A stretch of 64,000 nucleotides of DNA, from contig JBMOPW010000014.1 of the NCBI GenBank assembly GCA_049322915.1, positions 1,028,224 through 1,092,223 on the forward strand, written 5' to 3'. Numbering within the stretch: position 1 is the stretch's first letter; each line of letters starts with the position of its first letter. This document shows, in pieces, positions 40,113 through 64,000 of this stretch. Source of the DNA: Candidatus Zhuqueibacterota bacterium (lineage in GTDB: Bacteria; Zhuqueibacterota; Zhuqueibacteria; Thermofontimicrobiales; Thermofontimicrobiaceae). A program made the position numbers and the translations under genes. The notes below the pieces were generated by a model, which was not told the origin of the DNA, ran no database searches, and saw only the letters and a program-made list of their open reading frames with translations.

Positions 40113-40208
40113 AGGGGTGTTAAATTACTGTCATAGATTTATTTTACGTTGCATATTTATGTAATTTATTTAAATTGTAGCTTCGGAACGAATCAGGCGG
40201 AGATGAAC

Positions 40209-47987: not shown

Positions 47988-48015
47988 GTAGTGGACGGTC
48001 GCGACCGTCCCCTAC
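47988..48015. repeat. GTAG-type REP-like palindrome
   Basis: GTAGTGGACGGTCGCGACCGTCCCCTAC with a perfect 18-bp core palindrome GGACGGTCGCGACCGTCC. Confidence 0.7.
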
Positions 48016-48208
48016 AGATACGAAAAAGTATCGAATTTATTGCAATTGCTGTCAACTGGTCATTCATATTAATAATGAAATTATTCTAACCCTGAACCAG
48101 CCAGCCTGAGTCGTTACGAATTGAGTATCGCGTTTCGTTGGGAGAATCAGTGCCAACGCTCCGGCGTCGTTGGCAGTGTTGACAGGGGTGAATCGATCGA
48201 TGCCTGGC

Positions 48209-48814
48209 TCAATACTTCCGAATCACCGCCCGCACCAGGCCGATGACGCTGAAATTCTTCTCGTCGGACTTGACATAGATCGGCTGATACAGCGGATTCT
48301 CCGATTGCAGCACAGTACGCCCCGGTTCGGCAACAAGGCGCTTCACCAGCAAATTGCCGTTCAGCGCGATGAGCATCAGATGCCCATCCCTCACCCCATG
48401 GCATCGCTCGAAAATGACGAGATCGCCGGGACGAAGGCCGGCATCCTGCACCGGTTGCGTGTTGATCCGAATGGCGAAAACCTCGCCCTCGCCAGTCAGT
48501 TTGGCGTCCAGCAGCAGTTCTTCCGCGACATTGGACTGAAACGCCATCGGATCGCCGAGCACCGGGACAGGGCGCACCTTCACTGGTTTCGTTTCGCTGC
48601 CGGTCAGGATTTCGATGGCGCGTGACCCGCCCCGTTTCTTCCTGAAAATGTAGCCCTTCTTTTCCAGATAGCTGAGCAGTTGGTGCACATTGCCCAGAGA
48701 GCCGAATCCCTGCCGCTGCAACTCGCGCACTGTGGGCGGGTAGCCGTTGGCTTTAATATTGTACTGAATCGCGCCTAAAAGTTCGCGTTGCCGGGGAGTT
48801 AATTGGTCGGGCAT
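48209..48814 (-). CDS. LexA-like repressor (winged helix plus S24 domain) lacking the autocleavage site and catalytic Ser
   Basis: LTPRQ...GYPPTVREL...LEKKGYI...SRAIEI; VPVLG-DP with no VAAG; INTQPV in place of VxGDSM; GDLVI, LVKR and SENPLY retained. Start set at MPDQLT (48814). Confidence 0.85.
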   Translation of the reverse strand: MPDQLTPRQRELLGAIQYNIKANGYPPTVRELQRQGFGSLGNVHQLLSYLEKKGYIFRKKRGGSRAIEILTGSETKPVKVRPVPVLGDPMAFQSNVAEELLLDAKLTGEGEVFAIRINTQPVQDAGLRPGDLVIFERCHGVRDGHLMLIALNGNLLVKRLVAEPGRTVLQSENPLYQPIYVKSDEKNFSVIGLVRAVIRKY

Positions 48815-49004
48815 TGTCTCACCATTTTGCTGGATTCGAGTCTTTTCGGAACAGCCAGTTGCCGGGAGCTGGCGCAACGGCTGAGGTTGTAACACCATTC
48901 CTTCATCGGGTTCGCAGACTTCACGAAAATCTCATTTCATCGGATCGTTGTTTCTATTTCGGGCGAACGTCGGGATCTGCATCGACCTCACTCATCGGCT
49001 CCCA

Positions 49005-49814
49005 TTAATTCTCCGGTTCGGGTGCATCGCGCTCCGGCCGCTGCGGGAATTGCCCTTTCAAGGCGGAGTTGATGATGTTGATTACCTCCTCGGAAAATAC
49101 CTGCTGGGCCATCCACGACAGGTAGTCCCGATCCGTCTTCACCACATTCCGCAGCAGTTGACCTTTGAACTTGCCAAAAGTGAATGCTGCCTCGCCATTC
49201 TGCCAGATGAATTTTTTATCCGCATCGACGTACCTGTCATCGCGGCGATTGCTCAGTTTATGCAGGTCATCCAGGGTGCGCGGCAGGGTGGCGTACTTCG
49301 TCAGTTGCTGGCTGAAAATTTCCAGCGTGGCCTGCGCATCTTTCAACGCACTGTGCGCGCCGACCAATTCTTTGTTGCAGTAAAAGCGGTAGGCGGCTGC
49401 CAAATCCCTGCGCTCCATGCTTTTGTAAATTGAAAGGACATCCACGATGCGCACATTTTCGGTGCTGAAATTTACCCCGGCCCGTTTCAATTCATTGACC
49501 AGCAGAGGCAGATCGAATTTCAGAAGATTGTAGCCGGCCAGATCGCTGTCTTCAATGATCAAATGAATGTCTTTGGCAATTTCGTTGAATCGCGGTTTAT
49601 CCATGACGTCGAAATTGTTGATGCCGTGAATGTTGGTGGCATCCACAGGAATGGGAATGCCCGGGTTCACCCTTGTCAGAAATGTCTCGGACGTACTGTC
49701 CGGATATACTTTTAAAAGGGCGATCTCCACGATGCGCGCTGTGCTGACATCCAGTCCTGTGGTTTCAAGGTCGAAAAAAACGATAGGTCTGTCGAATTGT
49801 AAATTTAAATTCAT
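49005..49814 (-). CDS. DEDDh 3'-5' exonuclease (DnaQ / Pol III epsilon-like)
   Basis: FFDLETTG, IHGI, AGYN..KFD and HSALKD motifs; C-terminal FGKFKG...YLSW domain. Confidence 0.92.
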   Translation of the reverse strand: MNLNLQFDRPIVFFDLETTGLDVSTARIVEIALLKVYPDSTSETFLTRVNPGIPIPVDATNIHGINNFDVMDKPRFNEIAKDIHLIIEDSDLAGYNLLKFDLPLLVNELKRAGVNFSTENVRIVDVLSIYKSMERRDLAAAYRFYCNKELVGAHSALKDAQATLEIFSQQLTKYATLPRTLDDLHKLSNRRDDRYVDADKKFIWQNGEAAFTFGKFKGQLLRNVVKTDRDYLSWMAQQVFSEEVINIINSALKGQFPQRPERDAPEPEN

Positions 49815-50751
49815 ACGGATTCCCTGTATTTGTCTTTGTTCGCGACTGAGGTATTCTTCCGATGGCCAGCCCGCCGGATAAACGCCCGCCCGTTCATGCG
49901 ACGAAGCGCGACCTTCGCCCGGGGGAGATGCCCCGGCGAAGCATTCCTTCCTTCGTCATCACCTGAGACGATAAATTTTCCGCGCCGCAAATCACATTTC
50001 ATACCATTTTAACTTTTATGTGGCATCGATAGGTGGCTGTTCCGTATCATCGCTGAATAACTGCCACTAAGACACGAAGCCGCTCAGAGAGTAAAATACA
50101 AACAACGTGTCCCGAATAATTCCTCTTGTTGTATTTAATTTCAGTCACGAATTACAAACTGCCCGAGGTTTGCTTGGTGTCTTAGCGCCTTTGAGGCAAC
50201 GAAGATTTCCAGATGTAAAATTCATCGGAATGCCCTCAAAGGTTAGCATGATATAATAAATAATTTGTAACAATGACGAGCCGACGGGTCAGAAAATACG
50301 CTCTGAAGTTACTAAAAAAAAAGCTGTGAGTCAAACAAATTCTTCGCCATTTTGGTCGGGCGATTCCCCTGCATTCGGCGCAGCCTGGTTCACGGTCGTC
50401 ACCGTGCCTCTATGTTTCAGGCGCCCTCCTCGCGCTGCTATTTCATTCCGGCGCGCATCGAACTGAGTATCATTTTCAACACAGCCAGGCTCTCCGGCCA
50501 TTCCGACCAGTCAGCGAAAATCTCAGTCCCGGTCATCTTATGGAGAGATCCCCCTGTGAATTGCACCGTATTTCTCTGGCATTTTACGGCCATCAGCCGA
50601 CTTGGCAAACAGCCCATCTCAAAATGAATCAATTGTCAGTCAAGTATTATGAGATTAATCCGATAATATTTACACGAATGGAGTGTTATGTCGAATGTTT
50701 AACCCGGGGAATAATTTGGAAGATAAACTACCTCGCGTTCAAAACTCACCG

Positions 50752-50952
50752 ATGGACAGAAGGACCTTCCTGTTGAAGTGGGGGAAGGTGTTCGGTGTGA
50801 GCATGATGATGGCCATGACGCCATTGAAGAATCTGTTGAATCTCGAAGAAATCCTGTTCTGGATGAAATTCCGGTTGACTCAGGGTGTGGATACGCTCGT
50901 CTTCTCTATCCTGGAAAAGCTGGGCCGTCACCGGGACAGGTATTTTGATTAG
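50752..50952 (+). CDS. Small protein with a twin-arginine-like N-terminus (66 aa), uncertain
   Basis: MDRRTFLLKWGKVFGVSMMMAMTP...; lies just upstream of, and co-directional with, the 51002 operon; no clear RBS. Confidence 0.45.
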   Translation: MDRRTFLLKWGKVFGVSMMMAMTPLKNLLNLEEILFWMKFRLTQGVDTLVFSILEKLGRHRDRYFD

Positions 50953-51001
50953 AAATAGCAAGTCAATTTCATGATGTCATTTAACTCAGTGGTGCGAAAC
51001 T

Positions 51002-53341
51002 ATGTATTTGAACTATTGGCGATTGAAGAGGAAACCGTTCGAGAATTCGTTTGAACCGGATTTCTTTTTCCTATCAGAGAATACTGCCGATGCGCTGAAT
51101 CGGCTCACCTATTGTATCTCCGAACAAAAGCAATTGGCGTCTTTGACCGGGGATTACGGCACCGGCAAGACATATCTGCTTCAGAATTTGTTCAATAAGT
51201 ACAGCAAAGATAATGTCTATATCCTGTCGCTGAGCGCTGTCAGGCATGTTCCGGGTCGAACGCAGCAGCAGTTCATTCTCGATTACGAGAATGGTGATTT
51301 TGCCGGCAATACGCGACTGGAGTCTGTGCAGGAGATCATGGACTTTCTTTTGGAGAAAGCCCGTTCCGGCCAGCGGAGCATTCTCATCATCGACGAAATG
51401 CAACTCATCGAAGACGACAATGTGTTCGAGGATATTCGGATGCTGCTCAATACGAATTTCGAATATCATTCCGTGGTCACCGTGATCCTGGCCGGACACA
51501 CCAGCTTGCAACAGACCCTGGTTCGGCTGCCGCAACTGCAACAACGGCTGACAGTGAATTGTTATCTGCGGCCGTACACTGATGTCGAGACAGCATCATT
51601 CATCAAATATCGGCTGCGACAGGCCGGGAGCAAAGAGAATATGTTCACCGGGGACGCCATGCAGAAAATTCACCAGATCAGCAATGGCCTGCCGCGGAAA
51701 ATCAACAATGTCTGTGACCTGGCGCTGGTACTCGCATTTATGAGAAAGCACAAACCCATCGACGCCGACATCATCGATGCGATCAACAATGAAAATGATA
51801 TTCTGTTCAAACAGCCGGAATTGCAGGCCGAACAACTGCCCCGGCAAAAGGATGAAAATGCGGAAATAGCCCTCGACGACGAACGGGAGTCGGAGCCAAA
51901 GACGACAAAACTCGCTTTTGACACCCTGGTTGAAAATGCCAGAGCGCGGCAGTCCGAACTGCCTCCGCTGGAAAGTTGGCCGGGAGACGACAGTTCGGAT
52001 GCGGAGAAGTATGTGCCGTTCCGGTTTTCGCCCATGAAACAACTGCACGATGAAAAATCCAGTCCGCTCCCGGATGCCAGTCCGCTGGAAAAGCTGATCC
52101 AGCCGAATTCTGTAACTCCTAAAATGGATGGCTTGAAGAACGCTCAAAATTTCCAGGCGCCGGATCCGTTGAATAAAACCGCCAGCCCCACATCGGAGCG
52201 CAGCGATGCGTTCAATCAGCAGTTGAGCGATTATCTCGCACCGCAAAACAGCGCCCGCGACCTGTCTTTCTCCGACTCCCGGGAACAGCATACCCTGCCC
52301 GGCGGCGCTGAGGAATTTTTAGGCGAAGCAGACCCCCTGATGGCGCAGGATGAGGAAGATGATCTTGTCGATCTGGATGATATTTTCCAGGAGGAGATGG
52401 AGCAAAACCGCAAAGCGGATTCCGGGGTGATTCCTCTCGGCGATGATCTTAACTGGACGTTGACGTCATTCATCTTTCCAACGGTGACGGAATTTTTCCA
52501 GGAGTTGAAAGCCGGGCAGCCGCTCAATCTGGATCGTCTCAACATGGTGGTGGAGACGATCATCAACATCACGCGGGAAGGGGACGAGCTCATCACCCGA
52601 TTGTTCGATACGACGGGCAATCACAGTATGGAAGAGCACAGCATCAATGTGGCAGGCCTGTCGGCTGCGGTGGCTCTGGCGCTGAATATGAGCGATCAGG
52701 AGGTGGAAGAAGTGGTGCTATCGGCGCTGCTGCATGACATCGGCATAATGAAAATAGATCCGGAAATTGTCTTTAAAAAAGGGACGCTGCAGAAACATGA
52801 ACTGGAAATCATCAAGGAGCATCCGTACATGGGCGCCGAGATGCTGCACAAAATCCGCAGCGACCGATATGCCTCATTTCTGCCAACCCTGCGGACAGTC
52901 ATTCTGCAGGAGCATGAGCGAGAAGGCGGCATTGGCTATCCGCTGGGACTGCACGGAGATGAGATTCACAAGTATGCCAAAATCATCGGGCTGTGCGATG
53001 TGTTCGAAGCATCCTGTTTTCGGCGAAAAGAGAGAAAAAGCACCCTGGTGCACAATACCCTGAAGAAAATTATTGACCTGGATGTCAAGTATTTCTCCAC
53101 CCGGATCAAAAAAGGATTGGTGAAAAAGTTGACGCTCTATCCGCTGCATTCTTATGTGCAGCTTAACTCCGGCGAGATCGGGTGCGTGGTGAAGGTGAAT
53201 CAGAGTCACCCGCTGCGGCCAATTTTGGAAATGGTAGCGGATTCCGACCGGAACCGGCTCCCTGCGCCGGAGACGCGGGATCTGTTGAAGACGCCGTTCC
53301 TGTTCATCGAGAATGTAGTGGATAAAGAGGATGTTTTTTAA
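51002..53341 (+). CDS. ExeA/GspA-type AAA ATPase fused to an HD-GYP domain
   Basis: N-terminus MYLNYWRLKRKPF, GDYGTGKT, LIIDEMQ, LQQRL, SNGLPRKINNVCD; acidic linker; C-terminus HSINVA, LLHDIG, EHP, EHEREGGIGYPLGL, CDVFEA. Confidence 0.88.
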   Translation: MYLNYWRLKRKPFENSFEPDFFFLSENTADALNRLTYCISEQKQLASLTGDYGTGKTYLLQNLFNKYSKDNVYILSLSAVRHVPGRTQQQFILDYENGDFAGNTRLESVQEIMDFLLEKARSGQRSILIIDEMQLIEDDNVFEDIRMLLNTNFEYHSVVTVILAGHTSLQQTLVRLPQLQQRLTVNCYLRPYTDVETASFIKYRLRQAGSKENMFTGDAMQKIHQISNGLPRKINNVCDLALVLAFMRKHKPIDADIIDAINNENDILFKQPELQAEQLPRQKDENAEIALDDERESEPKTTKLAFDTLVENARARQSELPPLESWPGDDSSDAEKYVPFRFSPMKQLHDEKSSPLPDASPLEKLIQPNSVTPKMDGLKNAQNFQAPDPLNKTASPTSERSDAFNQQLSDYLAPQNSARDLSFSDSREQHTLPGGAEEFLGEADPLMAQDEEDDLVDLDDIFQEEMEQNRKADSGVIPLGDDLNWTLTSFIFPTVTEFFQELKAGQPLNLDRLNMVVETIINITREGDELITRLFDTTGNHSMEEHSINVAGLSAAVALALNMSDQEVEEVVLSALLHDIGIMKIDPEIVFKKGTLQKHELEIIKEHPYMGAEMLHKIRSDRYASFLPTLRTVILQEHEREGGIGYPLGLHGDEIHKYAKIIGLCDVFEASCFRRKERKSTLVHNTLKKIIDLDVKYFSTRIKKGLVKKLTLYPLHSYVQLNSGEIGCVVKVNQSHPLRPILEMVADSDRNRLPAPETRDLLKTPFLFIENVVDKEDVF

Positions 53342-53426
53342 CCGGACGGCCTGTGAGAATCGGAGAAGACGGACGGGGCGAGTGCGGATGGAGCCGAAGC
53401 TCTTCCTGAGTTGATCATCGCTCCAG

Positions 53427-54614
53427 ATGAAAAATATGATTGTGAATTGTATGAGTAAAGGACGACAAATATCCGGGGAATTCAGCTTTTTAAGGGATGT
53501 CATCCGATCCTATTTGGGCATGACCGGGGGACTGCCGCAGCGCTGCTATCCGTGGAACCGGATCACGCGCCGCGCAGCGACTGAAGGGTTGGCTGGTTTG
53601 TGCTACGAAGTCCTTCTCGAAGAGAAGTTCATCGTCCCGGCGTGGGTGGACCAGTTCTTTCGGTTTATCTACTTCGAGAATGTAGCGCGATACATGCGCT
53701 GCGAGAAGGCGCTCAGCGCACTGCTCCTCGGCGTGGATCAGCCGGTGATTGTTTTAAAAGGTATGGCGCTCGTGCCGCGGTTCTATCACGCCACAGGCCT
53801 GCGGGGTTTTTCAGATCTGGATGTGCTCGTTCGCGCGAATGATGGAGCGAAGTTCGTCGACGCGGTGAAACGGCTCGGTTACCGCATCGCGGAGAGTGAG
53901 CATCAATTGCAAGACGCGGACGGCGTGCAGCTCGATATTCACACCGATTTGTTCGGCTTCGGGCGAATCCAATCCCGCAAGTTTGCCGTGCGCATGAATG
54001 AGGATTTGCCGTGGACAAAGACGAGACAGCTATCGATACAGCAGTCCCGCGCCCTTTGCCTTGAGCCGGAATTGGAAATATTGTATCTGTGCTATCACAT
54101 GGTCAAACATTCATTCCTGAAACTGATCTGGGCCGTGGATATTGCGAAGATCCTGCTGACGTATAAAAACCAATTCCGCTGGGACTATTTTATCGATTTG
54201 GCGCAGGACAGCAATCTCAATGTTTTCAGCTACTATGGCTTGCATTTCACCAATGAAATCGCGTCAGGCCTTGTCCCCCGGGACCGGCTGGAACAACTCA
54301 TGACGTTCCAGTCCAATGCCCTGCAATCGAGCATGTACCGGGCAGTCGTGCAGGGCGACAAAGTTCAGCAATTCGCCGAGCTGTTTTTCATTTCATCCAT
54401 TCAGTCCGGCGCGAAAAAACTGGCATTCATCAGAGAAGTAGTCGCTCCGGCAGCGCCGGTGAGAAAGCAGATTGTCCGAAACAATGCCGCGTCGCAGCTT
54501 AAAATCGGTTTCTATCCGATACGGTTTTTTCAGATGGCTCGAATCGGATTGAGTTGGGCAATGGCCCTGGTGAGGAATTTTTCATTCCGATGGAATTTCA
54601 AATTTAGCGAGTGA
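53427..54614 (+). CDS. Nucleotidyltransferase-family protein (NTP_transf_5-like)
   Basis: LKGMAL...LRGFSDLDVLV...LDIH...YH..KH...WAVD pattern. Confidence 0.85.
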   Translation: MKNMIVNCMSKGRQISGEFSFLRDVIRSYLGMTGGLPQRCYPWNRITRRAATEGLAGLCYEVLLEEKFIVPAWVDQFFRFIYFENVARYMRCEKALSALLLGVDQPVIVLKGMALVPRFYHATGLRGFSDLDVLVRANDGAKFVDAVKRLGYRIAESEHQLQDADGVQLDIHTDLFGFGRIQSRKFAVRMNEDLPWTKTRQLSIQQSRALCLEPELEILYLCYHMVKHSFLKLIWAVDIAKILLTYKNQFRWDYFIDLAQDSNLNVFSYYGLHFTNEIASGLVPRDRLEQLMTFQSNALQSSMYRAVVQGDKVQQFAELFFISSIQSGAKKLAFIREVVAPAAPVRKQIVRNNAASQLKIGFYPIRFFQMARIGLSWAMALVRNFSFRWNFKFSE

Positions 54615-54620
54615 TCATCC

Positions 54621-55700
54621 ATGTTTATCCGAGGTGTGGACCAATGCGTCAGTTCGGGAATCATATCGCTCAGGATTCACGGCGTGTCCGCACGCGTTTT
54701 TGTGGGCGATGAAGGGTTGTTCCGGGAACTCAGCATTGAATTGCTCCATTTTATCGTGAATCCGCCGGATGATGACCGGCCGGAAATTACGGTGCATTTT
54801 CAGGAATATTGCAGCGTCGCGTTTTCGAAAGCAGAGATAAAAAGAATCCGTTCACTGAAGAAAATACGGCTCACCGCTGAGATCGAAAACTATTCGGATG
54901 TGGCCCAGTTGACGACGTACCTGTTCGCGCGAAAAGGATGGAACCCGGACGAGGCGGTGATTCTGGTGCTGTCGCAGTTAGCTTACCTGCTCCGGCTGAC
55001 GCTGAGCCAGAAATACGATGTGGCTGTGTTTCATGGCGCGTCGCTTTCCTACGGTGGTCAGGGGATCCTTTTTGTGGGACAGTCCGGCGCAGGGAAGACG
55101 TCGCTGTCGTATCTGTGCGCGAGACAGGGATTCCAATACCTCTCTGATGAGGATAGCTTTGTCCTGTTCGACACAGCCCGGCGCGTTTGCACATTATTAG
55201 GATTCCAGCGTCGGCTGCGCCTTCACAGCCTCATGCCGTACCGCGCCGGTTCAGGGCATAGCAGCAGGGGGCAGTTCTCCGGCTTCGGGGAGCAGGGTAT
55301 GGTGTACGATCCCCGGCAGGATTGCGCCAATGCTTATTGCCTGCGCGCGCCGTTGAAGAAAATCATCATCCTGAATAATCACCGGCAGAATGCCCGGCTG
55401 ACGTTTCAAAAAATACCGGCTGAGCAGCGGTTCTTCCAACTGCTGAAATATTTTGAGAGCGCAACAGTGGAATACAGCAATGGCCGCGATCTCATAACCC
55501 GCTACAATCGTCGCGGCTTTGACCTGGTCTCGCTGATTGCGCGCAGCTATGACATTTACTTTTTGAATTATGACTTCAGGAAACATTCGTTCGAGCTGCC
55601 ATTCAAAGTCAAAGCGGCGCTCTCGTCCAGCGAGATAGGCGAAGAAAATAATTACGTGCAGGCAATCCCGAGATTTGTCGACACAGGAATTCTGGTTTAA
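54621..55700 (+). CDS. HPr kinase-related P-loop kinase
   Basis: FHGASL, GILFVGQSGAGKTSL and YLSDED (His, Walker A and acidic pair of the HprK fold). Confidence 0.82.
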   Translation: MFIRGVDQCVSSGIISLRIHGVSARVFVGDEGLFRELSIELLHFIVNPPDDDRPEITVHFQEYCSVAFSKAEIKRIRSLKKIRLTAEIENYSDVAQLTTYLFARKGWNPDEAVILVLSQLAYLLRLTLSQKYDVAVFHGASLSYGGQGILFVGQSGAGKTSLSYLCARQGFQYLSDEDSFVLFDTARRVCTLLGFQRRLRLHSLMPYRAGSGHSSRGQFSGFGEQGMVYDPRQDCANAYCLRAPLKKIIILNNHRQNARLTFQKIPAEQRFFQLLKYFESATVEYSNGRDLITRYNRRGFDLVSLIARSYDIYFLNYDFRKHSFELPFKVKAALSSSEIGEENNYVQAIPRFVDTGILV

Positions 55701-55711
55701 AGAGGGTAAGA

Positions 55712-55999
55712 TTGAGCAACCGAGAGAAACGATACCGCATCCCGGCGAATGTGTTATGGCGGGAAGAGAAAGACCGGATTGTCCTGTTCAACGAGGAATC
55801 CGGCGAACCCTACCTCCTCAATGAAATCGGCACCTCTATCTGGAAACTGTGTGTGCAGGAGAAAACGCAGGCGGAGATCATCTCGGTCATGCTGGAAAAT
55901 TACGAGGGGAACTATGAGCAGATTTCCCGGGAGACGCAGCAATTTCTGTCCAATTTGTGCAAGGCGGGATTTCTCAACGAGGTGAAACATGCTGCTTAG
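55712..55999 (+). CDS. PqqD-family protein (stand-alone RiPP recognition element)
   Basis: 95 aa; VLWR...IVLFN...YLLNEIGTSIWKL...II..MLENY...FLSNL..AGFL. Confidence 0.92.
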   Translation: MSNREKRYRIPANVLWREEKDRIVLFNEESGEPYLLNEIGTSIWKLCVQEKTQAEIISVMLENYEGNYEQISRETQQFLSNLCKAGFLNEVKHAA

Positions 56000-57029
56000 C
56001 GCTCCCACAGAGGTGTTCTGGTGCGTCACCCACCGGTGCAATCTCCGCTGCCGATTCTGCCTGTCCCGCTCGACGCGAGTCCGGCAGACGAATGAACTGA
56101 ATGCAACGCAGCGCGAGTTTGTACTGTCTCAACTGCTCGATGAGAAGGTGCTGAAGGTGTATCTGACCGGCGGCGAGCCGATGCTATGCCCGGAGATTCT
56201 GTCCTACATTGCGCGGCTCAGGCAGGCAGGCGTTTTCGTCGAGTTGACGACCAACGCCACGCTGTTGAACGAGGAGCGAATCCGTCGGCTGCGGGATCTG
56301 GACGCCAATCGCATTCAGGTGAGTCTGAACGGCGCGCAGGAGCGAACCAACGATACATTGATGGGTCGCAGCCATCGCCGCATCTGGGAAAACCTGGCGC
56401 TCCTGAAGAAACACGGACTGAAGACCCATGTGAAAGTGACAGTCGTGCGCCAGAACCTCCGCGAAATCGAGCAGCTCCTCCGTCAGTTGGTTCGCAGCGG
56501 CATCGACCAGATCGATATTTCAGAAGTTCATCCGCTGGGACGGGCGTTTGATAACTGGGAATCGCTGAGAGTTGATCTGGAAGACTTGCTGCGCCTGCGG
56601 GAGAACATCACCGCATTTCAGGAACGGACAGGCAAATCGGTTTCGTTTCACTGCGCCACGCTGCAGGTGCACGAAGAGGGTGTGCCGGCGCAATGCACAG
56701 CCGGCCGGCCCGACGCCTCGGCCTGCCAGATTCTGCCGGATGGCAATGTGATTCCCTGCGCGTTCGCGAGCGTGTGGGACGTGACGAATAACATCATGGA
56801 TCGGGGACTTGGGAACTGCTGGCAGGCGATGACCCGGTATCAATATTTCCAGAATCCACATTTGCTGGAAGGGCGATGCGCCACCTGCCTTCGGAAAATG
56901 GAATGCGCCGGAGGGTGTCGCGCTCTGGCCTACTTGTTCACCGGAAAAATTTGGGGAGAGTATCCGTTTTGCCCAATGAATCAGGAGAAGGTCTATCATG
57001 AGCAGCAAAAAGAAGTGGCAGTCGCCTGA
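55989..57029 (+). CDS. Radical SAM / SPASM peptide maturase (PqqE/MftC-like)
   Basis: CNLRCRFC, TGGEP and TTN motifs; SPASM CTAG...ILPDGNVIPC...CATC-x5-CAGGCRA...PFC; overlaps both neighbouring genes. Confidence 0.93.
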   Translation: MLLSAPTEVFWCVTHRCNLRCRFCLSRSTRVRQTNELNATQREFVLSQLLDEKVLKVYLTGGEPMLCPEILSYIARLRQAGVFVELTTNATLLNEERIRRLRDLDANRIQVSLNGAQERTNDTLMGRSHRRIWENLALLKKHGLKTHVKVTVVRQNLREIEQLLRQLVRSGIDQIDISEVHPLGRAFDNWESLRVDLEDLLRLRENITAFQERTGKSVSFHCATLQVHEEGVPAQCTAGRPDASACQILPDGNVIPCAFASVWDVTNNIMDRGLGNCWQAMTRYQYFQNPHLLEGRCATCLRKMECAGGCRALAYLFTGKIWGEYPFCPMNQEKVYHEQQKEVAVA

Positions 57030-57243
57030 GTACAAAACATTGTCCAGCCTGAATCAGCAGGAAAGCGCTGCTGAGCCCTGCTTTCCACGGCTAATTCAGT
57101 CAATGCCCACATGCAATACCATACAATTATTCCGGGTGCCGAGGATCTGCAATATCAGTTGGCCGCAGCAGCGGGTGTGTGTTGCAAGAAATGTTCCCCA
57201 GCGGACCATTCAGTGCTCGCACAAAGTGCGGACGCTGAGTTGA
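56998..57243 (+). CDS. Putative RiPP precursor peptide (81 aa)
   Basis: AGGAG RBS; leader KKKWQSPEYKTL; Cys at residues 28, 39, 51, 61 and 73; ends ...KVRTLS followed by TGATGA; overlaps the rSAM 3' end. Confidence 0.8.
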   Translation: MSSKKKWQSPEYKTLSSLNQQESAAEPCFPRLIQSMPTCNTIQLFRVPRICNISWPQQRVCVARNVPQRTIQCSHKVRTLS

Positions 57244-57314
57244 TGATTTGCTTCGAATGAATCCGAATAGTTATTGATAGAAAGAATGAGTGTTAAATTT
57301 AAGCGGAGTGTCAC

Positions 57315-57689
57315 ATGGCTCAAAATAAAATATTGGTCGTCGATGACGAACCAAAAATTCAACTGTTGCTGACGAATTATTTCTCGAATCGGGGGAATGA
57401 TGTTCGCGCTGTTCCTTCCGGCGAAGATGCCCTGGAAATGATGGAATTCTGGAATCCGGACCTGATCTTTTTGGACATCCAGCTACCTCATCTCAATGGC
57501 ATGGACGTGTTGAAACGGATCAAAATGATGAACGATGGAATACCGGTCGTGATGATCTCCGGGTACGCCACCGAGAAGATGGCAATCAAAAGCCTGGAAT
57601 TGGGCGCCATGGATTACATCAACAAGCCCATCAATTTCAAACGGCTGGAAGAAATTGTCACGTACGTTTCCTCAGTCAAAGAGTCGTAG
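57315..57689 (+). CDS. Single-domain response regulator (receiver only)
   Basis: VVDDE, LDIQLP, ISG and YINKP motifs; 124 aa. Confidence 0.92.
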   Translation: MAQNKILVVDDEPKIQLLLTNYFSNRGNDVRAVPSGEDALEMMEFWNPDLIFLDIQLPHLNGMDVLKRIKMMNDGIPVVMISGYATEKMAIKSLELGAMDYINKPINFKRLEEIVTYVSSVKES

Positions 57690-58664
57690 GTGGAACTGCG
57701 CGGCATGAGGAAAATACCGCATATCCCTTTCTTGATTATGTGGCTGGCGACCTCCCTCGCCGGACAGCCGGATTCGACGCGCGCGCGCGCATCGGAATTT
57801 GCCGCCGGAATGAGCTTGGCCGTCGGGACAGATTATATTCTCGGCCCGGGCGATGTGCTGGCGATTCAGGTCTACTGGGGGAATACGCTCACGCAGAACA
57901 CCAGTCAAACGCATGAGGTCGAGGTACAGCCGGCCGGAGAGATCATCCTGCCCGGATTGGGTGAGGTGTTCATCTCAGGGATGACAATAGTGGAAGCGAA
58001 GTACAAGCTGCTGCGGCAATACAAAGACATCATTCGCGACCCGCGGCTGGTGATAAAAGTCCTCCGCTATGTCAGCCACACGGTGACGGTCTTCGGCGCG
58101 GCGCGCAACGGCGTGTATCCTCTGAAAAGAAATACGCGCATTGCGGAATTGCTGTCCGCCATCGGAGGTCTGGAAAATACATCGGATATGTCGGCCATAC
58201 GCGTCAGTCGAAAAAACGGCGTTATGATTCACGTGAATCTGATGAAGCTGATCGAGAGCAATGATCTGTCACAGAATATCATCTTGCAGCAGGACGATTT
58301 GATTTTGGTCCCCGGCGTGAATGCAAACAAGGTGGTTGTTCTGGGTGAGGTGAATTCGCCGGGCGTGGTGCCTTTGAACGGCAAGCTCACGCTGGTTGAG
58401 GCCGTCGTGAAATCCGGGGGCGTCACGCAGCAGGCGAAATTGAGCCACATTCAGCTCATTCGTTTTGGCGCAAACGACAAGAAAACCTATACCGTGGATT
58501 TATTGGATCTGGTGAAGAAGAAAAAAGCGACTACAGTGCAACTGGAAGCCGGCGACATTGTGTATGTGCCCGGCAAACGTCAGGTGCTGGATGGGATTAA
58601 TACCGTTCTGCGCACCTTGCTGCCGTCGCTCCAGACAGTCCTGTTAGTGAAAACGGTGATGTAA
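57690..58664 (+). CDS. Polysaccharide export protein (Wza/OPX family, Poly_export plus SLBB domains)
   Basis: DYILGPGDVLAI, GEIILPGLG, GEVNSPG, LEAGDIVYVP. Confidence 0.9.
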   Translation: MELRGMRKIPHIPFLIMWLATSLAGQPDSTRARASEFAAGMSLAVGTDYILGPGDVLAIQVYWGNTLTQNTSQTHEVEVQPAGEIILPGLGEVFISGMTIVEAKYKLLRQYKDIIRDPRLVIKVLRYVSHTVTVFGAARNGVYPLKRNTRIAELLSAIGGLENTSDMSAIRVSRKNGVMIHVNLMKLIESNDLSQNIILQQDDLILVPGVNANKVVVLGEVNSPGVVPLNGKLTLVEAVVKSGGVTQQAKLSHIQLIRFGANDKKTYTVDLLDLVKKKKATTVQLEAGDIVYVPGKRQVLDGINTVLRTLLPSLQTVLLVKTVM

Positions 58665-60937
58665 TGACTCAGTATGAATTGAATATCCGGGATTTCTGGC
58701 GCGTCATTCGAAAGCGCAAGTATTTCATCGCAGGGGTCGTGGCGACGATTGCGGTGGTGAGCGCAGTCTACAGCGTTTTGAACCGGCCTCAGCCGATTTT
58801 CGAATCAGTGGCGAGCGTCAAGATCGAGCGGACTAATACGCTGACCGGCGTTTATTTGCAGGCCGTCACCTACAATCCGGAGGACAACATTGCCACCCAG
58901 GCCGAGGTCATCCGCAGTTTCCCGGTGCTTCAAAAAGTGTCGCAGGAGTTGGGCTATGTCGATTCCAGCGCGACGTTCGACCATGTGCTGAGCGATGACG
59001 CCGCTGTGAGCGCGATTCTCGATTTGATGAGCAAAGTGAGCACCAGCCAGGAGGGACTGACCAATATCATCAATATCATCGTCCAATCCGCCGATGCAGA
59101 GGAAACCCAAAAAATTGCCAACACCATCGCCAGGGTCTATATCGCGGAAAACAGCCGGGAGAAAAACCAGCGAATCGTCAATGCGCTGGACTTCATCCGA
59201 AAACAGCTCCAGGTCATCGGCGAACGATTGAACACGGCGGAGGAGGATGTTCGTCAATATCGGGAGCAGGAAAAGCTCATCACGCTCGAGACAAAAACCA
59301 GTATGGTGTCGCGGGAATTGGAGATGACCGAGGATGAATACTTCCAGGTGAAACGCAGACGCCAGGAGATTGAATCCATCCTGAGCAACCTGTCCGCTGA
59401 GAAGGGGGAATTCATTCGAAACAGATTCATCGGACTTGATGGGCAGAATCAGTCGCCGACCTTCTCTCTGCTGGCCAATCGGCTCGCCGACCTGTTTTTG
59501 CAGCGCGATGAACTTCTGATTCATTTCAAAGAAAATCACCCGGACATCCAGCAGTTGGACAAAAAGATTGAGGAGATTTTCAAAAACATCCGCCGGGAGC
59601 TGACTGCCCAGTACGAATCCCTGGTTCGGTCGGAAAAAATTCTCGAAGCCGAAGTGGAAAAATCGCGCGCCGCCTACAAAACATTGCCGCGCGATGGTCT
59701 GGAACTGGCGCGGCTTCAGCGCCGCGTGATGCTGAATGAAGAAATTTACACCCTGCTGGAATCGAAACATCAGGAAGCGCTGTTGCAAAATTCAGAAAAA
59801 ATTCAGGAAGCAGCCCTGGTGAAACCGGCGCTGCGCGGTTATCGGGTGAATCCGCCGGCCTCGGTGTGGACGACATGTTTCATCGGCGGGCTGGTGGGAC
59901 TGATTCTCGGACTGCTGGGCGCGTTCATCCTCGAATCCATCGATACTTCGTTCGAGACGATTGAGGAAGTGGAGCGCTCGCTGAACATGGCGGTCGTGGG
60001 AATCATCCCCTATTACGACAGCCAGATTCTGAAGGAACGGCTTCGCTCGGAAATCAAATTGAATCTTTCGGAGCAGTCGCTCAATATCGGCGCCCGGCTG
60101 ATTTCTTTCTTCGCGCCCAAATCCACGCTGGCGGAGAGCTATCGCGCCTTGCGCACCAATATTCATTATCTGTTCAAGAAGAACGGGATGCACTCGCTGC
60201 TGGTTACGAGCGCCACTGTGGGCGAGGGAAAAACAACCACCTGCGCCAACCTGGCCATTACCATGTCCCAGATCGGACTCAAAACGCTGCTGGTCGATTG
60301 CGACCTGAGGCGGCCATTCATCCATAAAATGTTCGGCATCGAGCGGGAGCCGGGGCTGAGCAATATCCTCATCAACACTGCGCAATGGGAGGATTGCATT
60401 CAGACGATCACCGATATCATGATGGGCGAATTGAATCTGGATGAAGTGCTGCTGGCGCCGGGCATGGAGAACCTCAATATTCTCACTGCCGGAACCGCTC
60501 CGTCGACGCCGTCCGAGTTGATAAATTCCGCCTATATGCCGGAGCTGCTGACGATACTCAAATCCCATTACGATGTGGTCATCATCGATTCCTCCCCGGT
60601 CCTGCCGGCGGCGGACGCCACCATTCTGGCGTCGCGGGTGGACGGCGTGCTGCTGGTTTACCAGGTGGGCAGGACGGCGCGCGGCGCATTGCGCCGGACA
60701 AAAATCCAATTGGAAAATGTCAACGCCAACATGATGGGGATTGTCATCAATAATTTCAAAGTCGAATTGAACCCGGATTATAAGGATTTTAATTATCACA
60801 AATACTACAGCTACGGCGCCGAAACGCCGGACGCAACGTCGGGCGACGAGCGCTCCAACTGGCAGTTCACTTCGATCAAGGACGCGGTTCAGAAGACCAG
60901 GGATGAGATAAAAACCAGGATAAAGGTTGTCAAATGA
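58664..60937 (+). CDS. Polysaccharide co-polymerase / BY-kinase (Wzc family)
   Basis: Two TM helices around a coiled-coil region, ESYRALRTN, GEGKTT, DCDLRRP, IIDSSP and a C-terminal Tyr cluster DYKDFNYHKYYSY. Confidence 0.93.
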   Translation: MTQYELNIRDFWRVIRKRKYFIAGVVATIAVVSAVYSVLNRPQPIFESVASVKIERTNTLTGVYLQAVTYNPEDNIATQAEVIRSFPVLQKVSQELGYVDSSATFDHVLSDDAAVSAILDLMSKVSTSQEGLTNIINIIVQSADAEETQKIANTIARVYIAENSREKNQRIVNALDFIRKQLQVIGERLNTAEEDVRQYREQEKLITLETKTSMVSRELEMTEDEYFQVKRRRQEIESILSNLSAEKGEFIRNRFIGLDGQNQSPTFSLLANRLADLFLQRDELLIHFKENHPDIQQLDKKIEEIFKNIRRELTAQYESLVRSEKILEAEVEKSRAAYKTLPRDGLELARLQRRVMLNEEIYTLLESKHQEALLQNSEKIQEAALVKPALRGYRVNPPASVWTTCFIGGLVGLILGLLGAFILESIDTSFETIEEVERSLNMAVVGIIPYYDSQILKERLRSEIKLNLSEQSLNIGARLISFFAPKSTLAESYRALRTNIHYLFKKNGMHSLLVTSATVGEGKTTTCANLAITMSQIGLKTLLVDCDLRRPFIHKMFGIEREPGLSNILINTAQWEDCIQTITDIMMGELNLDEVLLAPGMENLNILTAGTAPSTPSELINSAYMPELLTILKSHYDVVIIDSSPVLPAADATILASRVDGVLLVYQVGRTARGALRRTKIQLENVNANMMGIVINNFKVELNPDYKDFNYHKYYSYGAETPDATSGDERSNWQFTSIKDAVQKTRDEIKTRIKVVK

Positions 60938-62385
60938 ATGGATTCGGTCTGAAACTTCCACTGCCCCGGCCGTTGATCCGGCCATTTCTTCTGCCGGGTC
61001 TGCTGGCTCTGGTTTTAATCCTCGTGGCGTTCCTCGTGATCAATCTGCCGGTCCCCATGGCGCTGGGGATATCGGTGGTCATCGTTGTGTTCGCTGTCAG
61101 TTTTTTCAAGATTAAAATTGCGCTGGCCGTATTGATTTTTTCCATGTTGCTCTCCCCTGAAATTGGCGTGCGCGAGACAGGCGGCGGCGGGACCACCATT
61201 CGCATCGATGACTTTTTGATTTTCATCATCAGCGTCGCCTGGCTGATGAAAATGGCTGTCACCAAAGAGTTCGGGACGCTCGTGCGTTCCAGCCTGTCGC
61301 TGCCGATTCTGCTTTACGTTGCAACGTGCGCCGTGGCGACCGCCGTTGGCATCGCCGCCGGTCGGGTGGAGGCCAAAACAGGCGTGCTCTTTGTGATCAA
61401 ATACGCCGAATATTTTTTGATCTATTTCATTGTAATGAATCACATGCGGGAGCGGAAGCTGGCGGAATTGTATCTCACGTTGGTCTTTGCCACCTGCGCG
61501 CTGGTCTGTTGTTTCGCGCTGTACCAGGTGCCTGCTGATGGCCGGGTGACCGCGCCGTTCGAAGGCGCCAGCGGCGAGCCAAACACGCTGGGCGGATATC
61601 TGGTGCTTATCTTCTCGATGATGATGGGCATTTTTTTAACGGCGCCGTTCAGTCGAACCATGCGATGGGTTTACGGATCCGTCCTGGCGTTGATTTTTTT
61701 TGTGCTGCTGGCCACGCAGTCCCGCGGTTCCTGGCTGGCCTTTGCCGCCATGTACCTCGCGTTTGTGGTCTTTCACAAAGGCCGGTTCGCGCTGACGCTG
61801 GTCATGGTCATTGCGTTGCTATTCGGTCCTCTTGTTCTGCCGAATTCGGTCAAAGACCGGTTCCGCTACACGTTCAAAAAAGAGTCCGGCTGGGCGGCGC
61901 GCTATCAGGAAAATGTGGCCGGACTGACGCTGGATACGTCAGCTTCGGCGCGCGTACGGGACTGGAAGGAAGCCTGGCAACAGTTCAAGTCCAGACCGGT
62001 GTTGGGCGACGGCGTCACCGGCTGGAAATTTGTGGATTCCCAGTACATCCGAACCCTGGTGGAAACCGGGATCGTCGGCCTGGCAGCGTTCCTCTTTTTG
62101 ATTGGCGCATTGATTCGTCAGACCTATTTGCGATTCAGGGCTGCCCGGGATAAGGTATTTCGCGGGGTATGTCTGGGATTTCTGGCAGGCACAATCGGCC
62201 TGCTTGTTCATGGATTGAGCGCTAATTCATTTATCATCCTGCGCATCATGGAGCCGTTCTGGTTCCTTGCCGGGATTGTGATGGTATCGGACACGTATTC
62301 AGAAAAAGAAAACCTGGAACAGCATGACGATGAGACGACGGGAAGATTTTCTGGTGTTCGGGAGTCCCCGAATCGAGGAAGATGA
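60934..62385 (+). CDS. O-antigen ligase / Wzy polymerase-family membrane protein
   Basis: About 12 TM helices; RVTAPF...PNTLG, TQSRG, R..W...P.LG.G and ETGIVG. Confidence 0.85.
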   Translation: MNGFGLKLPLPRPLIRPFLLPGLLALVLILVAFLVINLPVPMALGISVVIVVFAVSFFKIKIALAVLIFSMLLSPEIGVRETGGGGTTIRIDDFLIFIISVAWLMKMAVTKEFGTLVRSSLSLPILLYVATCAVATAVGIAAGRVEAKTGVLFVIKYAEYFLIYFIVMNHMRERKLAELYLTLVFATCALVCCFALYQVPADGRVTAPFEGASGEPNTLGGYLVLIFSMMMGIFLTAPFSRTMRWVYGSVLALIFFVLLATQSRGSWLAFAAMYLAFVVFHKGRFALTLVMVIALLFGPLVLPNSVKDRFRYTFKKESGWAARYQENVAGLTLDTSASARVRDWKEAWQQFKSRPVLGDGVTGWKFVDSQYIRTLVETGIVGLAAFLFLIGALIRQTYLRFRAARDKVFRGVCLGFLAGTIGLLVHGLSANSFIILRIMEPFWFLAGIVMVSDTYSEKENLEQHDDETTGRFSGVRESPNRGR

Positions 62386-63571
62386 GATTGCGGAAGTGGC
62401 GGACTGCCTGCGTTCCGGCTGGATCAGCACCGGGCCGCGCGTTGCCCGGTTCGAAAAAATGTTTGCCGAATACATCGGTGCTGGGCATGCGATTGCCCTG
62501 AATTCCTGCACTGCCGGACTGCATCTGGCGTTGAAAGTGGCCGGCATTGGCCCGGACGATGAAGTGATTTCCACGCCGATGACCTTTGGCGCCACAGCCA
62601 ACGTGATAGTGAACCTGGGAGCGATTCCGGTGTTTGTCGATGTCAAGCGCGAAACGCAGAATATCGACCCGGCAAAGATCGGGCGAAAAATCACCTCCCG
62701 AACGCGCGCCATTGTGCCTGTTCACATGGCTGGCCGTCCCTGCGACATGGATGAAATTTCAGCGCTTGCGAAGAAGCATCAACTGGTCGTCATCGAAGAC
62801 GCGGCCCATGCGCTGGAGAGCCGCTACAGGGGGAAAAAGATCGGGGCCATCGGAGACCTCACGGCGTTCAGCTTTTACGTCACGAAAAATTTGACCACAA
62901 GTGAAGGCGGCATGGTGACCACGCAGAACGAGGAATGGGCGAACCGCATCAACATGCTTCGTCTGCACGGCCTGAGCAGGGGCGCCTGGAAACGGTACAG
63001 TTCCGAAAAATTTATGCATTATCAGGTGCTGGAGCCGGGATTCAAATACAACATGATGGATATGCAGGCGGCCATTGGCATCCGGCAAATGCCTAAAATT
63101 GAAACGTATCTGAGACGCAGAAATCAAATCTGGGCTATGTACGATGCGGCTTTTCGGGATTTACCGGTCCGACTTCCGGCGGCAGTGGCCGAGGGCGATG
63201 TCCATGCCCGTCATTTGTACACGCTGTTACTGGATGTGGACAGGCTCAATTGCAGTCGCGATGAATTTCAGCAGGCATTGTACGAGTTAAATATTGGCAC
63301 CGGCATTCATTTCATTTCGTTGCATCTTCACCCGTACTACAGAAATCGATTTGGTTTTGCGCATGATGATTTTCCGGAGGCGGCATACATTTCGGAGCGA
63401 ACCATATCACTGCCGCTGTCGGCAAAGCTGACGGATGTGGATGTGTACGATGTGATTCAGGCTGTCACGCACACGCTGAAGAAATTCTGGAAAAAGGAAT
63501 GGTCGCCTTCCGGGTTCGCAAATAATAAAGAAGCGGCGGTGGAAAGCCCTGAAAAGGCGCTGACGCGTTAA
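62324..63571 (+). CDS. DegT/DnrJ/ArnB family sugar aminotransferase
   Basis: WISTGP, NSCTAGLHL, IEDAAHA, FSFYVTKNLTTSEGG, PGFKYNM, SLPL. Confidence 0.93.
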   Translation: MTMRRREDFLVFGSPRIEEDEIAEVADCLRSGWISTGPRVARFEKMFAEYIGAGHAIALNSCTAGLHLALKVAGIGPDDEVISTPMTFGATANVIVNLGAIPVFVDVKRETQNIDPAKIGRKITSRTRAIVPVHMAGRPCDMDEISALAKKHQLVVIEDAAHALESRYRGKKIGAIGDLTAFSFYVTKNLTTSEGGMVTTQNEEWANRINMLRLHGLSRGAWKRYSSEKFMHYQVLEPGFKYNMMDMQAAIGIRQMPKIETYLRRRNQIWAMYDAAFRDLPVRLPAAVAEGDVHARHLYTLLLDVDRLNCSRDEFQQALYELNIGTGIHFISLHLHPYYRNRFGFAHDDFPEAAYISERTISLPLSAKLTDVDVYDVIQAVTHTLKKFWKKEWSPSGFANNKEAAVESPEKALTR

Positions 63572-63704
63572 CCAGGGTTTTCGGAATTGAAGAGAAGGCG
63601 TCGCGGTTGGCGTGTATCGGACCGATGCCCTGAACTCGGTCATTCAATCCCGGGCCGGTGCTTCTTCAACTGAAACGTAACCGATCACAGGGTGGTTAAG
63701 ACTG

Positions 63705-63789
63705 ACAGGATAACAGGATGTTTGGGATAGACAGGATTAATTAACTTTAGCTCTTTATCATGTTAATCAAAACATAATCGTGTAAATCA
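63705..63789. repeat. Short ACAGGAT-type repeats upstream of the GxxExxY gene
   Basis: GACAGGATAACAGGATG...GACAGGATT followed by degenerate complements ATCATGTTAATC and AATCGTGTAAATC. Confidence 0.5.
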
Positions 63790-63803
63790 CAGGAGGCTGC
63801 GTA

Positions 63804-64000
63804 ATGGAACTTGCAAGCTTGACTGAAAAAATTATTGGCTGTGCTTACAAAGTATATAACATGTTAGGATTTTGTTTTTTGGAGTCTGTTTACCCCGTGT
63901 AATAAAACAAATAGAAATTAATAGCAAGAGAAACAATAGCATATTACACGGGGTGAATGAAAATGCCCTGACAATTGAATTAAAAACAATGGGATTTGCT
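63804..64000 (+). pseudogene. GxxExxY-family protein gene interrupted by an insertion; runs off the window edge
   Basis: AGGAGG RBS; MELASLTEKIIGCAYKVYNMLGFCFLESV, then a stop inside the insert. Removing 63892-63956 restores ...ESVYENALTIELKTMGFA. Confidence 0.8.
63892..63956. mobile_element. 65-bp miniature inverted-repeat element
   Basis: Perfect 13-bp inverted repeats ACCCCGTGTAATA (63892-63904) and TATTACACGGGGT (63942-63954) around an A-rich spacer. Confidence 0.8.

Follow-up and report, generated by a model that had tools for sequence, protein, structure and literature searches.

Gene cluster and the candidate precursor gene

The window analysed here is a stretch of 64,000 nt from Candidatus Zhuqueibacterota bacterium (contig JBMOPW010000014.1, assembly GCA_049322915.1), and all coordinates refer to it unless another contig is named. 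At 56998..57243 it contains an 81-codon open reading frame (ORF) overlapping the end of a radical S-adenosylmethionine (rSAM) enzyme gene. Judging by analogy with known systems, this ORF probably encodes the precursor of a rare, uncharacterised family of peptides that are made by ribosomes and modified after translation (RiPPs), in which a leader, a RiPP recognition element (RRE), a kinase and a nucleotidyltransferase (NTase), all of lasso type, are joined to an rSAM cross-linking enzyme. Between 53427 and 57243 all genes lie on one strand and either overlap or are separated by gaps of at most 12 nt, in the order PF14907 NTase, HprK-like kinase, PqqD-family RRE, rSAM/SPASM enzyme and peptide, and are followed by a response regulator. 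The features of the cluster and of the peptide gene are as follows.

53427..54614, forward strand: PF14907 (NTP_transf_5) nucleotidyltransferase, 395 aa; Pfam E 2.8e-39, the sole PF14907 match in the genome
54621..55700, forward strand: HprK-like P-loop kinase, 359 aa; weak NCBIfam matches to HprK_rel_B (5.8e-8) and HprK_rel_A, all below cut-off
55712..55999, forward strand: discrete PqqD-family RRE, 95 aa; Pfam PqqD E 4.4e-14
55989..57029, forward strand: radical SAM/SPASM enzyme, 346 aa, no fused RRE; Pfam Radical_SAM and SPASM
56998..57243, forward strand: putative precursor peptide gene, 81 aa; ATG at 56998, stop TGA at 57241-57243
57016..57042, forward strand: leader motif W7-Q-S-P10-E-Y-K-T-L15 (WxxPx[aromatic/aliphatic]xxL); W7 and P10 invariant in 11 of 11 peptides
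57079..57216, forward strand: core segment from Cys28 to Cys73, with five Cys; spacing kept in 4 of 4 close relatives
57238..57240, forward strand: codon of Ser81 at the C-terminus, the putative target of the kinase; all 11 peptides keep this Ser and have Leu or Phe before it

The peptide carries Cys at residues 28, 39, 51, 61 and 73 (spacings 11, 12, 10 and 12), and Pro residues 27, 37, 48, 56 and 67 stand 1, 2, 3, 5 and 6 residues before the successive Cys. Gly and Asp are missing from the entire 81-aa sequence, Glu occurs only at positions 11, 22 and 26, and the segment comprising residues 27-81 has a net charge of +8 and ends with Ser81. The ORF coordinates, the peptide sequence, the Cys spacing, the Pro offsets and the terminal Ser, as well as the lack of Gly, Asp and any acidic residue after Glu26, had been reported in a first-pass annotation of this DNA, and recomputation gave the same values. 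Among 200,000 shuffles of residues 27-81, a range of Cys gaps of 2 or less was obtained in 0.55% and a Pro within 6 residues before every Cys in 3.3%, both properties having been chosen post hoc. No tandem repeats were detected in the DNA of the ORF by TRF, and a search with the peptide revealed no further copies in its own genome.

The 5' end of the ORF shares 32 nt with the 3' end of the rSAM gene, a feature that the first-pass annotation had left unmentioned, and the first 10 codons of the peptide are read in a second frame over the last 10 codons of the enzyme (56998-57029). An overlap of this 32-nt type is also kept in a genome of the same genus (G001; the genome of the window is G000) and in the metagenome locus L020, while in the B-type loci described below the two genes overlap by 1 nt or 4 nt or are separated by 1 nt. 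The geometry of this junction across the subgroups suggests translational coupling.

Evidence for purifying selection

The congener G001 encodes an 81-codon ORF at the same place and in the same gene order; the peptides are 68% identical and aligned without indels, and the rSAM enzymes are 65% identical. In the part of the ORF outside the overlap, the differences between G000 and G001 at codon positions 1, 2 and 3 number 18, 17 and 35. The ratio of nonsynonymous to synonymous substitution rates (dN/dS) is 0.12 for the G000-G001 pair and 0.05 for the G001-L020 pair, with synonymous sites near saturation (proportion of synonymous differences, pS, 0.64-0.79), and similar ratios were obtained for the flanking rSAM (0.08) and response regulator (0.07) genes. 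The L020 gene contains an 18-nt insertion in the linker, which is in frame, and the other five frames of the ORF are closed by stops in all three DNAs. Judging from this substitution pattern, the ORF at 56998..57243 is a real gene under purifying selection.

A 276-nt low-depth contig from sequencing run X2 spans 57119-57394 and shows three differences in the ORF (two synonymous at third positions and one at the variable residue 65) and three in the 71-nt spacer, which is too thin to count. A promoter and terminator scan of 53000-58000 gave counts within the range of shuffled sequences and nothing at the peptide gene, and no Rfam matches were found in 48000-64000. When all 11 peptides of the family were compared with NCBIfam at E<=10, nothing significant was obtained, the best values being E 0.12 for a paeninodin family (one of the 11 peptides) and E 2.5 for a Trp-rich family. 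The absence of any Pfam or NCBIfam family for the peptide would fit an untranslated frame that happens to be open in the spacer behind the rSAM gene, but the low dN/dS ratios at near-saturated synonymous sites, the conservation of length and stop, the in-frame insertion, the closure of the other five frames, and homologs at the same place after orthologous rSAM genes down to 38% enzyme identity make this explanation extremely improbable, and we regard it as close to refuted.

Peptide family and its conserved features

The family was collected by searches with the peptide and with profiles, and from the DNA following rSAM homologs in the phylum and in metagenomes; at E<=1e-55, the rSAM scan of the phylum picked out 5 of 167 genomes. 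With 11 peptides found, of which five are A-type, one is C-type and five are B-type, the family is small and has sharp limits. DNA was available for seven loci (the window, G001, L020, the metagenome locus L021, G054, G103 and G112), and each of the seven has the peptide gene immediately behind an orthologous rSAM gene or overlapping it (38-66% identity). The rSAM clade is wider, with about 40 cluster representatives (40 at E<=1e-60), some of them labelled Candidatus Schekmanbacteria or Bacillota.

Among the A-type peptides, those of the window, P0002 (81% identical), G001 and L020 share five Cys with the same spacing; the fifth member, P0007, has four Cys at other spacings. The tail common to all five reads WPQxRVC-xAxxVPQRTI(Q/R)C-(S/T)HKxxTLS. 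The C-type peptide of L021 contains three Cys (spacings 11 and 12), has Gly and Asp in the core and ends with QFS. The B-type peptides (G054/P0003, G112/P0004, P0005, P0006 and G103) are 53-58 aa long, with an acidic linker, a core consisting mostly of Lys and Arg, two Cys 15 residues apart and the end KGxKFS. All 11 peptides have W7, P10, K76 and the terminal Ser without exception, the last Cys is located 8-10 residues before the terminal Ser, and the residue preceding this Ser is Leu or Phe. Apart from K76 and S81, the three subgroups have just one feature of the core in common, a pair of Cys close to the C-terminus.

WxxP and the terminal Ser, whose conservation the first-pass annotation had proposed to check, are kept in 11 of 11 peptides. 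The spacing of the five periodic Cys described there proved exact in the four close relatives, while P0007 has four, L021 three and the B-type peptides two. The lack of Gly and Asp did not hold up as a trait, failing in L020 (Gly in the linker), L021 and the B-type. From this pattern of conservation, the leader motif and the terminal Ser are traits of the family, and the arrangement of Cys in five modules is restricted to the closest subgroup.

Several searches gave no further members. Of 79 metagenome loci, the 77 other than L020 and L021, with rSAM identity of 36% or less, contained five leader-motif matches, none of which ended in Ser or had a Cys pattern of the family. Scanning of the genome contigs with rSAM yielded four remote loci at 25% identity and was uninformative. 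The A-type profile matched four representatives; two of them, P0008 and P0009, are long repetitive proteins matched over short stretches and were rejected as spurious.

Leader recognition

W/YxxP is an RRE-binding motif common to some lasso, pyrroloquinoline quinone (PQQ) and linear polyphosphorylated peptide (LPP) precursors (Popov et al. 2026, PMC13381572). In the same paper, Trp is reported to occupy the first motif position almost invariably in those lasso precursors that are paeninodin-like and tailored by a kinase. When a profile of the five PqqD orthologs was compared with solved structures, lasso B1 proteins came first. TbiB1 (E 1.7e-11) led, followed by 9x90_B, which is named "lasso peptide biosynthesis PqqD family chaperone" (9.7e-9), and TfuB1 (8.4e-6); PqqD proper was reached at about 1e-3. 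By this comparison, the RRE is nearer to lasso B1 than to PqqD proper. Assignment of the leader to the lasso/PQQ W/YxxP type, made in the first-pass annotation, agrees with the invariance of W7 and P10, with the affinity of the RRE to lasso B1 and with the published occurrence of WxxP in paeninodin-type precursors.

Structure prediction of the leader-RRE complex, which had been suggested as a check, supported the pairing weakly. The predicted complex of the PqqD protein with peptide residues 1-40 scored 0.46 against 0.00 for the best control, on a scale where values of 0.60 or below count as weak support. Of 157 solved complexes, 116 pass the mark used, as do 2 of 215 mismatched pairs. At least 90% of the contacts were common to the runs, with a predicted local distance difference test (pLDDT) value of 55-56 for the partner. 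Two points reduce the weight of this prediction for the proposed recognition: scores in this band are more often wrong than right unless the pairing is likely beforehand, and complexes of this kind have already been solved, so that the pass may reflect likeness.

Radical SAM/SPASM enzyme and possible chemistry

The CX3CX2C motif of the rSAM enzyme is formed by C17, C21 and C24, and its C-terminal half contains seven invariant Cys (C236, C257, C297, C300, C306, C310 and C328). All generic features of an RRE-dependent rSAM/SPASM RiPP system are present, namely the rSAM core, the seven-Cys SPASM domain, the RRE and an adjacent conserved precursor. The peptide is very probably the substrate of this enzyme; the earlier description of the ORF as a genuine precursor-like gene beside its own rSAM is supported by the dN/dS values and by the conserved placement after the rSAM gene.

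The enzyme reaches no NCBIfam family. The best model is PqqE (153 bits, cut-off 381), followed by MftC (141), and lower scores, all below cut-off, were obtained for NirJ, AhbD, GeoRSP (107), ScmF (91), StsB (90) and PapB (89). The nearest PDB entries are PqqE (E 1e-24), SuiB, CteB and SkfB. The enzyme most likely makes intramolecular cross-links at the conserved Cys. That these are sulfur-to-carbon thioethers is possible and is put forward tentatively, by analogy; it is a guess because the enzyme scores best against the PqqE and MftC models and not against thioether synthases. The lead of these two models over StsB and PapB counts against thioethers, and so does the variation of the Cys number from 2 to 5 across the family with no conserved acceptor residue evident.

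If the reaction on this substrate does not form thioethers, it might link carbon to carbon or to oxygen, or modify the C-terminus in the manner of PqqE or MftC, and the Cys may then serve otherwise, e.g., in metal binding or disulfides. This alternative, which we consider rather unlikely, is favoured by the order of the model scores, by PqqE being the nearest solved enzyme, by the discrete PqqD and the absence of a protease or exporter in the cluster, as in PQQ and mycofactocin loci, and by the finding that the C-terminal tail from K76 to S81 is the most conserved stretch. However, all scores are far below the family cut-offs and do not place the enzyme, neither a Glu/Tyr pair nor a C-terminal Tyr is conserved, the Cys pair is shared by all three subgroups, and the odd Cys numbers (5 and 3) speak against simple disulfides.

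Kinase and nucleotidyltransferase

The Walker A motif G..GKT.LS and the motif LS(D/E)EDS of the kinase are invariant in four of four orthologs, and its structural look-alikes in the Atlas, with template modelling (TM) scores of 0.64-0.72, carry Hpr_kinase_C or ScmC. NTase orthologs adjoin the kinase in G001, G054 and L021. According to PMC8498205, HprK homologs of the paeninodin type phosphorylate the precursor's C-terminal Ser on its side chain and depend little on the remainder of the peptide, and the pseudomycoidin nucleotidyltransferase attaches hexoses to the phosphate on the C-terminal Ser. By analogy, the kinase of the cluster could phosphorylate Ser81 and the NTase could extend the phosphate, a proposal for which we judge the arguments to be evenly balanced.

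The terminal Ser, named as the candidate kinase site in the first-pass annotation, was found in all 11 peptides, including those of two genomes where no kinase was found. Kinase homologs (E<=1e-10) occur in 3 of 167 phylum genomes (G000, G001 and G054), all within the five that have the rSAM-peptide pair; the pair is present in 3 of 3 kinase-holding genomes versus 2 of 164 others, the 3/3 co-occurrence being overstated by the kinship of genomes that are not independent. L021 carries the genes for NTase, kinase, rSAM, peptide and PqqD in one unbroken row; the neighbouring genes encode a GAF protein and a PilY1-like protein and are not polysaccharide genes.

The alternative is that kinase and NTase belong to the polysaccharide locus surrounding the cluster and act on another substrate, with the terminal Ser conserved for recognition by the rSAM enzyme or for a role in the product. 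Besides the kinship of the genomes, three observations count against modification of Ser81 by these enzymes, and the first two also favour this alternative. First, the terminal Ser persists in G103 (85% complete) and G112 (95% complete, 9% contamination), where no kinase or NTase homolog was detected; a single weak kinase match in G112 was rejected as housekeeping HprK located beside phosphotransferase system (PTS) genes. Second, in G054 the NTase-kinase pair is in a polysaccharide locus on another contig than the rSAM-peptide pair. This locus, in a genome of another family, is syntenic with that of the window (ATPase, HD regulator, NTase, kinase, ..., response regulator, Wza, Wzc), and after the NTase-kinase pair (L105, G054:C9, 6073-8775) it encodes a 185-aa weakly transglutaminase-like protein (DUF553 E 2e-4, Transglut_core3 E 6.6e-4) in the place of PqqD, rSAM and peptide of the window. 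No second precursor-like ORF was found in the G054 kinase locus. The transglutaminase-like gene, seen beside the kinase in G054 only, may encode a B2-like leader peptidase. Third, the LPP kinase phosphorylates core Ser3 and not the C-terminal Ser (PMC13381572), so that RiPP kinases of the HprK type need not act at the C-terminus.

We nevertheless consider it unlikely that the two enzymes belong to the polysaccharide locus and act on another substrate. The L021 set is contiguous outside any polysaccharide context, the kinase is confined within the phylum to genomes with the rSAM-peptide pair, the segment 53427-57243 is tightly packed, and comparable HprK/NTase pairs that have been characterised take peptides bound to an RRE as substrates (PMC8498205 and PMC13381572).

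Two further arrangements were observed in the related genomes. In G054, the rSAM ORF (L016, 6138-7340, reverse strand) has a 56-residue N-terminal extension and no adjacent PqqD, and a PqqD ortholog is located near the start of another contig (L114, G054:C149, 161-499); this separation is due to either a rearrangement or an assembly break. In G001, a second PF14907-like gene (E 1.2e-12 to the NTase of the window) lies about 2.7 kb from the best PqqD match (E 6.7e-17) at G001:C9:85574-89131, and these two genes may represent a further RRE/NTase system that G000 is without.

Genomic neighbourhood

Three features surround the cluster.

51002..53341, forward strand: fusion of an XrtA/PEP-CTERM-type ATPase with an HD domain, opening the polysaccharide locus; HD_5 and, below cut-off, TIGR03015 (E 2e-51)
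57315..57689, forward strand: single-domain CheY-like response regulator, 124 aa; Pfam Response_reg E 1.2e-31
57690..60937, forward strand: polysaccharide export protein (Wza-like) and chain-length/tyrosine-kinase protein (Wzc-like); Pfam/NCBIfam

Beyond the Wza- and Wzc-like genes, a Wzy_C protein and then a DegT aminotransferase are encoded. With the ATPase-HD gene upstream and the Wza, Wzc, Wzy_C and DegT genes downstream, gene content places the peptide cluster within an exopolysaccharide locus. A response regulator or histidine kinase adjoins the peptide gene in G001, G054, G103 and G112 as well. No protease, exporter or immunity gene was found among the cluster genes with Pfam and NCBIfam.

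Elsewhere in the window, about 1.2 kb without a long ORF and without an Rfam match separates an exonuclease gene from the ATPase-HD gene (49815-51001), and a 2079-aa hybrid sensor kinase is encoded at 40149-46388 (forward strand), with eight stretches matching the PAS model, HisKA, HATPase_c and a receiver domain. Among the B-type genomes, the PqqD/rSAM/peptide loci appear to adjoin a molybdate-type ATP-binding cassette (ABC) operon (ModA-like protein, permease and ATPase, names that rest on reading of the translations) in two of three, and in L016 (G054:C37, 7361-9963) and L115 (G103:C146, 2423-4958) two predicted single-domain response regulators are located on the opposite side.

Proposed pathway and product

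In the proposed pathway, the lasso/PQQ-type leader KKKW7xxP10xYxxL15 would be bound by the PqqD-family RRE (55712..55999), a step with weak in silico support, and the RRE would present the core to the rSAM/SPASM enzyme (55989..57029). This enzyme would cross-link the core at its conserved Cys; a carbon-carbon bond or another radical modification is the alternative product. The HprK-like kinase (54621..55700) would then phosphorylate Ser81, and the PF14907 NTase (53427..54614) would extend the phosphate as in paeninodin- and pseudomycoidin-type lasso peptides. Since cyclase and B2 protease are both absent, no lasso ring would be formed. Cleavage of the leader and export are presumed, although the cluster encodes no protease or exporter.

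Instead of being cleaved and exported, the product could stay with the cell as a modified small protein or as a cofactor-like or regulatory peptide tied to response-regulator signalling or to polysaccharide. The lack of a protease, exporter or immunity gene in the cluster would agree with this, as would the polycationic nature of the cores and the finding that, in five of five genomes with enough flanking sequence, the peptide gene has a response regulator or a sensor kinase as its neighbour; the core charge is +8 here, and B-type cores are mostly Lys/Arg. Regulators are, however, common neighbours and may simply control the operon, L021 has no adjoining response regulator or polysaccharide genes, and protease and exporter could be encoded elsewhere; a retained product therefore appears improbable. 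A more far-reaching reading, to which we assign a low probability, is a polycationic Cys-cross-linked peptide with a glycosylated C-terminal Ser-phosphate that is tied to polysaccharide export and is not a free antibiotic. Such a peptide might act as a primer, anchor or cationic partner of the exopolysaccharide under the control of the adjacent response regulator.

If the proposed precursor family with lasso-type tailoring and rSAM chemistry is correct, tailoring of a C-terminal Ser by kinase and NTase would not be confined to lasso peptides and LPPs, and the kinase/NTase pair would be a portable module coupled also to rSAM chemistry. The scaffold of the product would be new, in that a long, basic core with several Cys would end in a phospho(glyco)sylated C-terminus, and the cluster would offer a natural case of one W/YxxP-type RRE serving two very different enzymes. 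Placement in an exopolysaccharide locus in two lineages points to a possible link of the modified peptide to production of the biofilm matrix.

Comparison with known systems

By its gene content, the cluster is an RRE-dependent rSAM RiPP system with lasso-type tailoring; the class is known, and the combination was not found in print. No description of an rSAM enzyme, an HprK-type kinase and an NTase acting on one peptide was found in a literature search that covered few subscription-journal papers.

Sactipeptide and ranthipeptide systems (StsB, PapB, CteB, SkfB) share the Cys-bearing core and the RRE-dependent rSAM/SPASM enzyme and provide the working model of the chemistry. The enzyme of the window scores 90 bits against the StsB cut-off of 625 and 89 against the PapB cut-off of 340, and, unlike in these systems, neither a repeat of the Cys-x3-Asp type nor a nested Cys/acceptor pattern is seen in the peptide. 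To our knowledge, kinase/NTase tailoring is not part of sacti- and ranthipeptide systems.

PqqA/D/E and MftA/B/C likewise combine a small W/YxxP-type peptide, a discrete PqqD and a SPASM rSAM enzyme with no exporter in the operon. Unlike in PQQ and mycofactocin precursors, no Glu/Tyr or C-terminal Val-Tyr is conserved here, and no PqqB/C or Mft partner genes are present in the cluster. The PqqE score of 153 bits (cut-off 381) is accompanied by 20 bits for PQQ_PqqD (cut-off 46), and the peptide contains no Glu/Tyr after residue 26, in contrast to the Glu-x3-Tyr core of PqqA.

SynChlorMet (ScmC, ScmD, ScmE, ScmF) and GeoRSP, which are known as database models only, also group an HprK-like protein, PqqD and rSAM/SPASM around a small peptide; a literature search for SynChlorMet returned no papers. 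The cluster of the window differs from both in having one rSAM enzyme and not two, and in the additional PF14907 NTase. The SynChlorMet cut-offs are missed by ScmD (36 bits against 100), ScmF (91 against 400) and ScmE (77 against 400), ScmC has no match in NCBIfam at E<=0.01, and the GeoRSP cut-offs are missed by the rSAM enzyme (107 bits against 400) and geo_PqqD (38 against 100).

LPP clusters (LppA/K/B/S/D/N) resemble the present one in combining an RRE, an HprK-like kinase and an NTP transferase with no macrolactam synthase; the precursor is linear and the kinase makes the primary modification (PMC13381572). They differ in their YxxP leaders, in phosphorylation at core Ser3, and in an archaeal-type signal peptidase and an MsbA-like exporter, and they were described from Bacillota (PMC13381572). 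Radical SAM is not mentioned in the text of that paper. The LPP core set is only partly present in the window: RRE, kinase and NTase were found, peptidase and exporter were not, and the leader is WxxP and not YxxP.

The phosphorylated and phosphoglycosylated lasso peptides paeninodin (PadeA/PadeK) and pseudomycoidin (K, N) share with the present system the WxxP leader, the B1-like PqqD RRE, the HprK-like kinase, the NTase and the C-terminal Ser, the kinase being likened to PadeK by description and not by sequence comparison. The first-pass annotation had argued against a lasso ring from the lack of an acceptor in the core, and this is upheld: no Asp or Glu is available at lasso core positions 7-9, with none after residue 26; the lasso B2 protease (PF13471) has no matches in the genome, which is 96% complete; and none of the eight PF00733 (Asn_synthase) matches, to which a lasso cyclase would belong, is located in the window, the nearest on the contig being about 790 kb away. 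In contrast to paeninodin-type lasso clusters, which have the cyclase, the B2 protease and a core with an Asp/Glu acceptor, the cluster of the window has an rSAM/SPASM enzyme at the place of the cyclase and a 55-residue core with five Cys.

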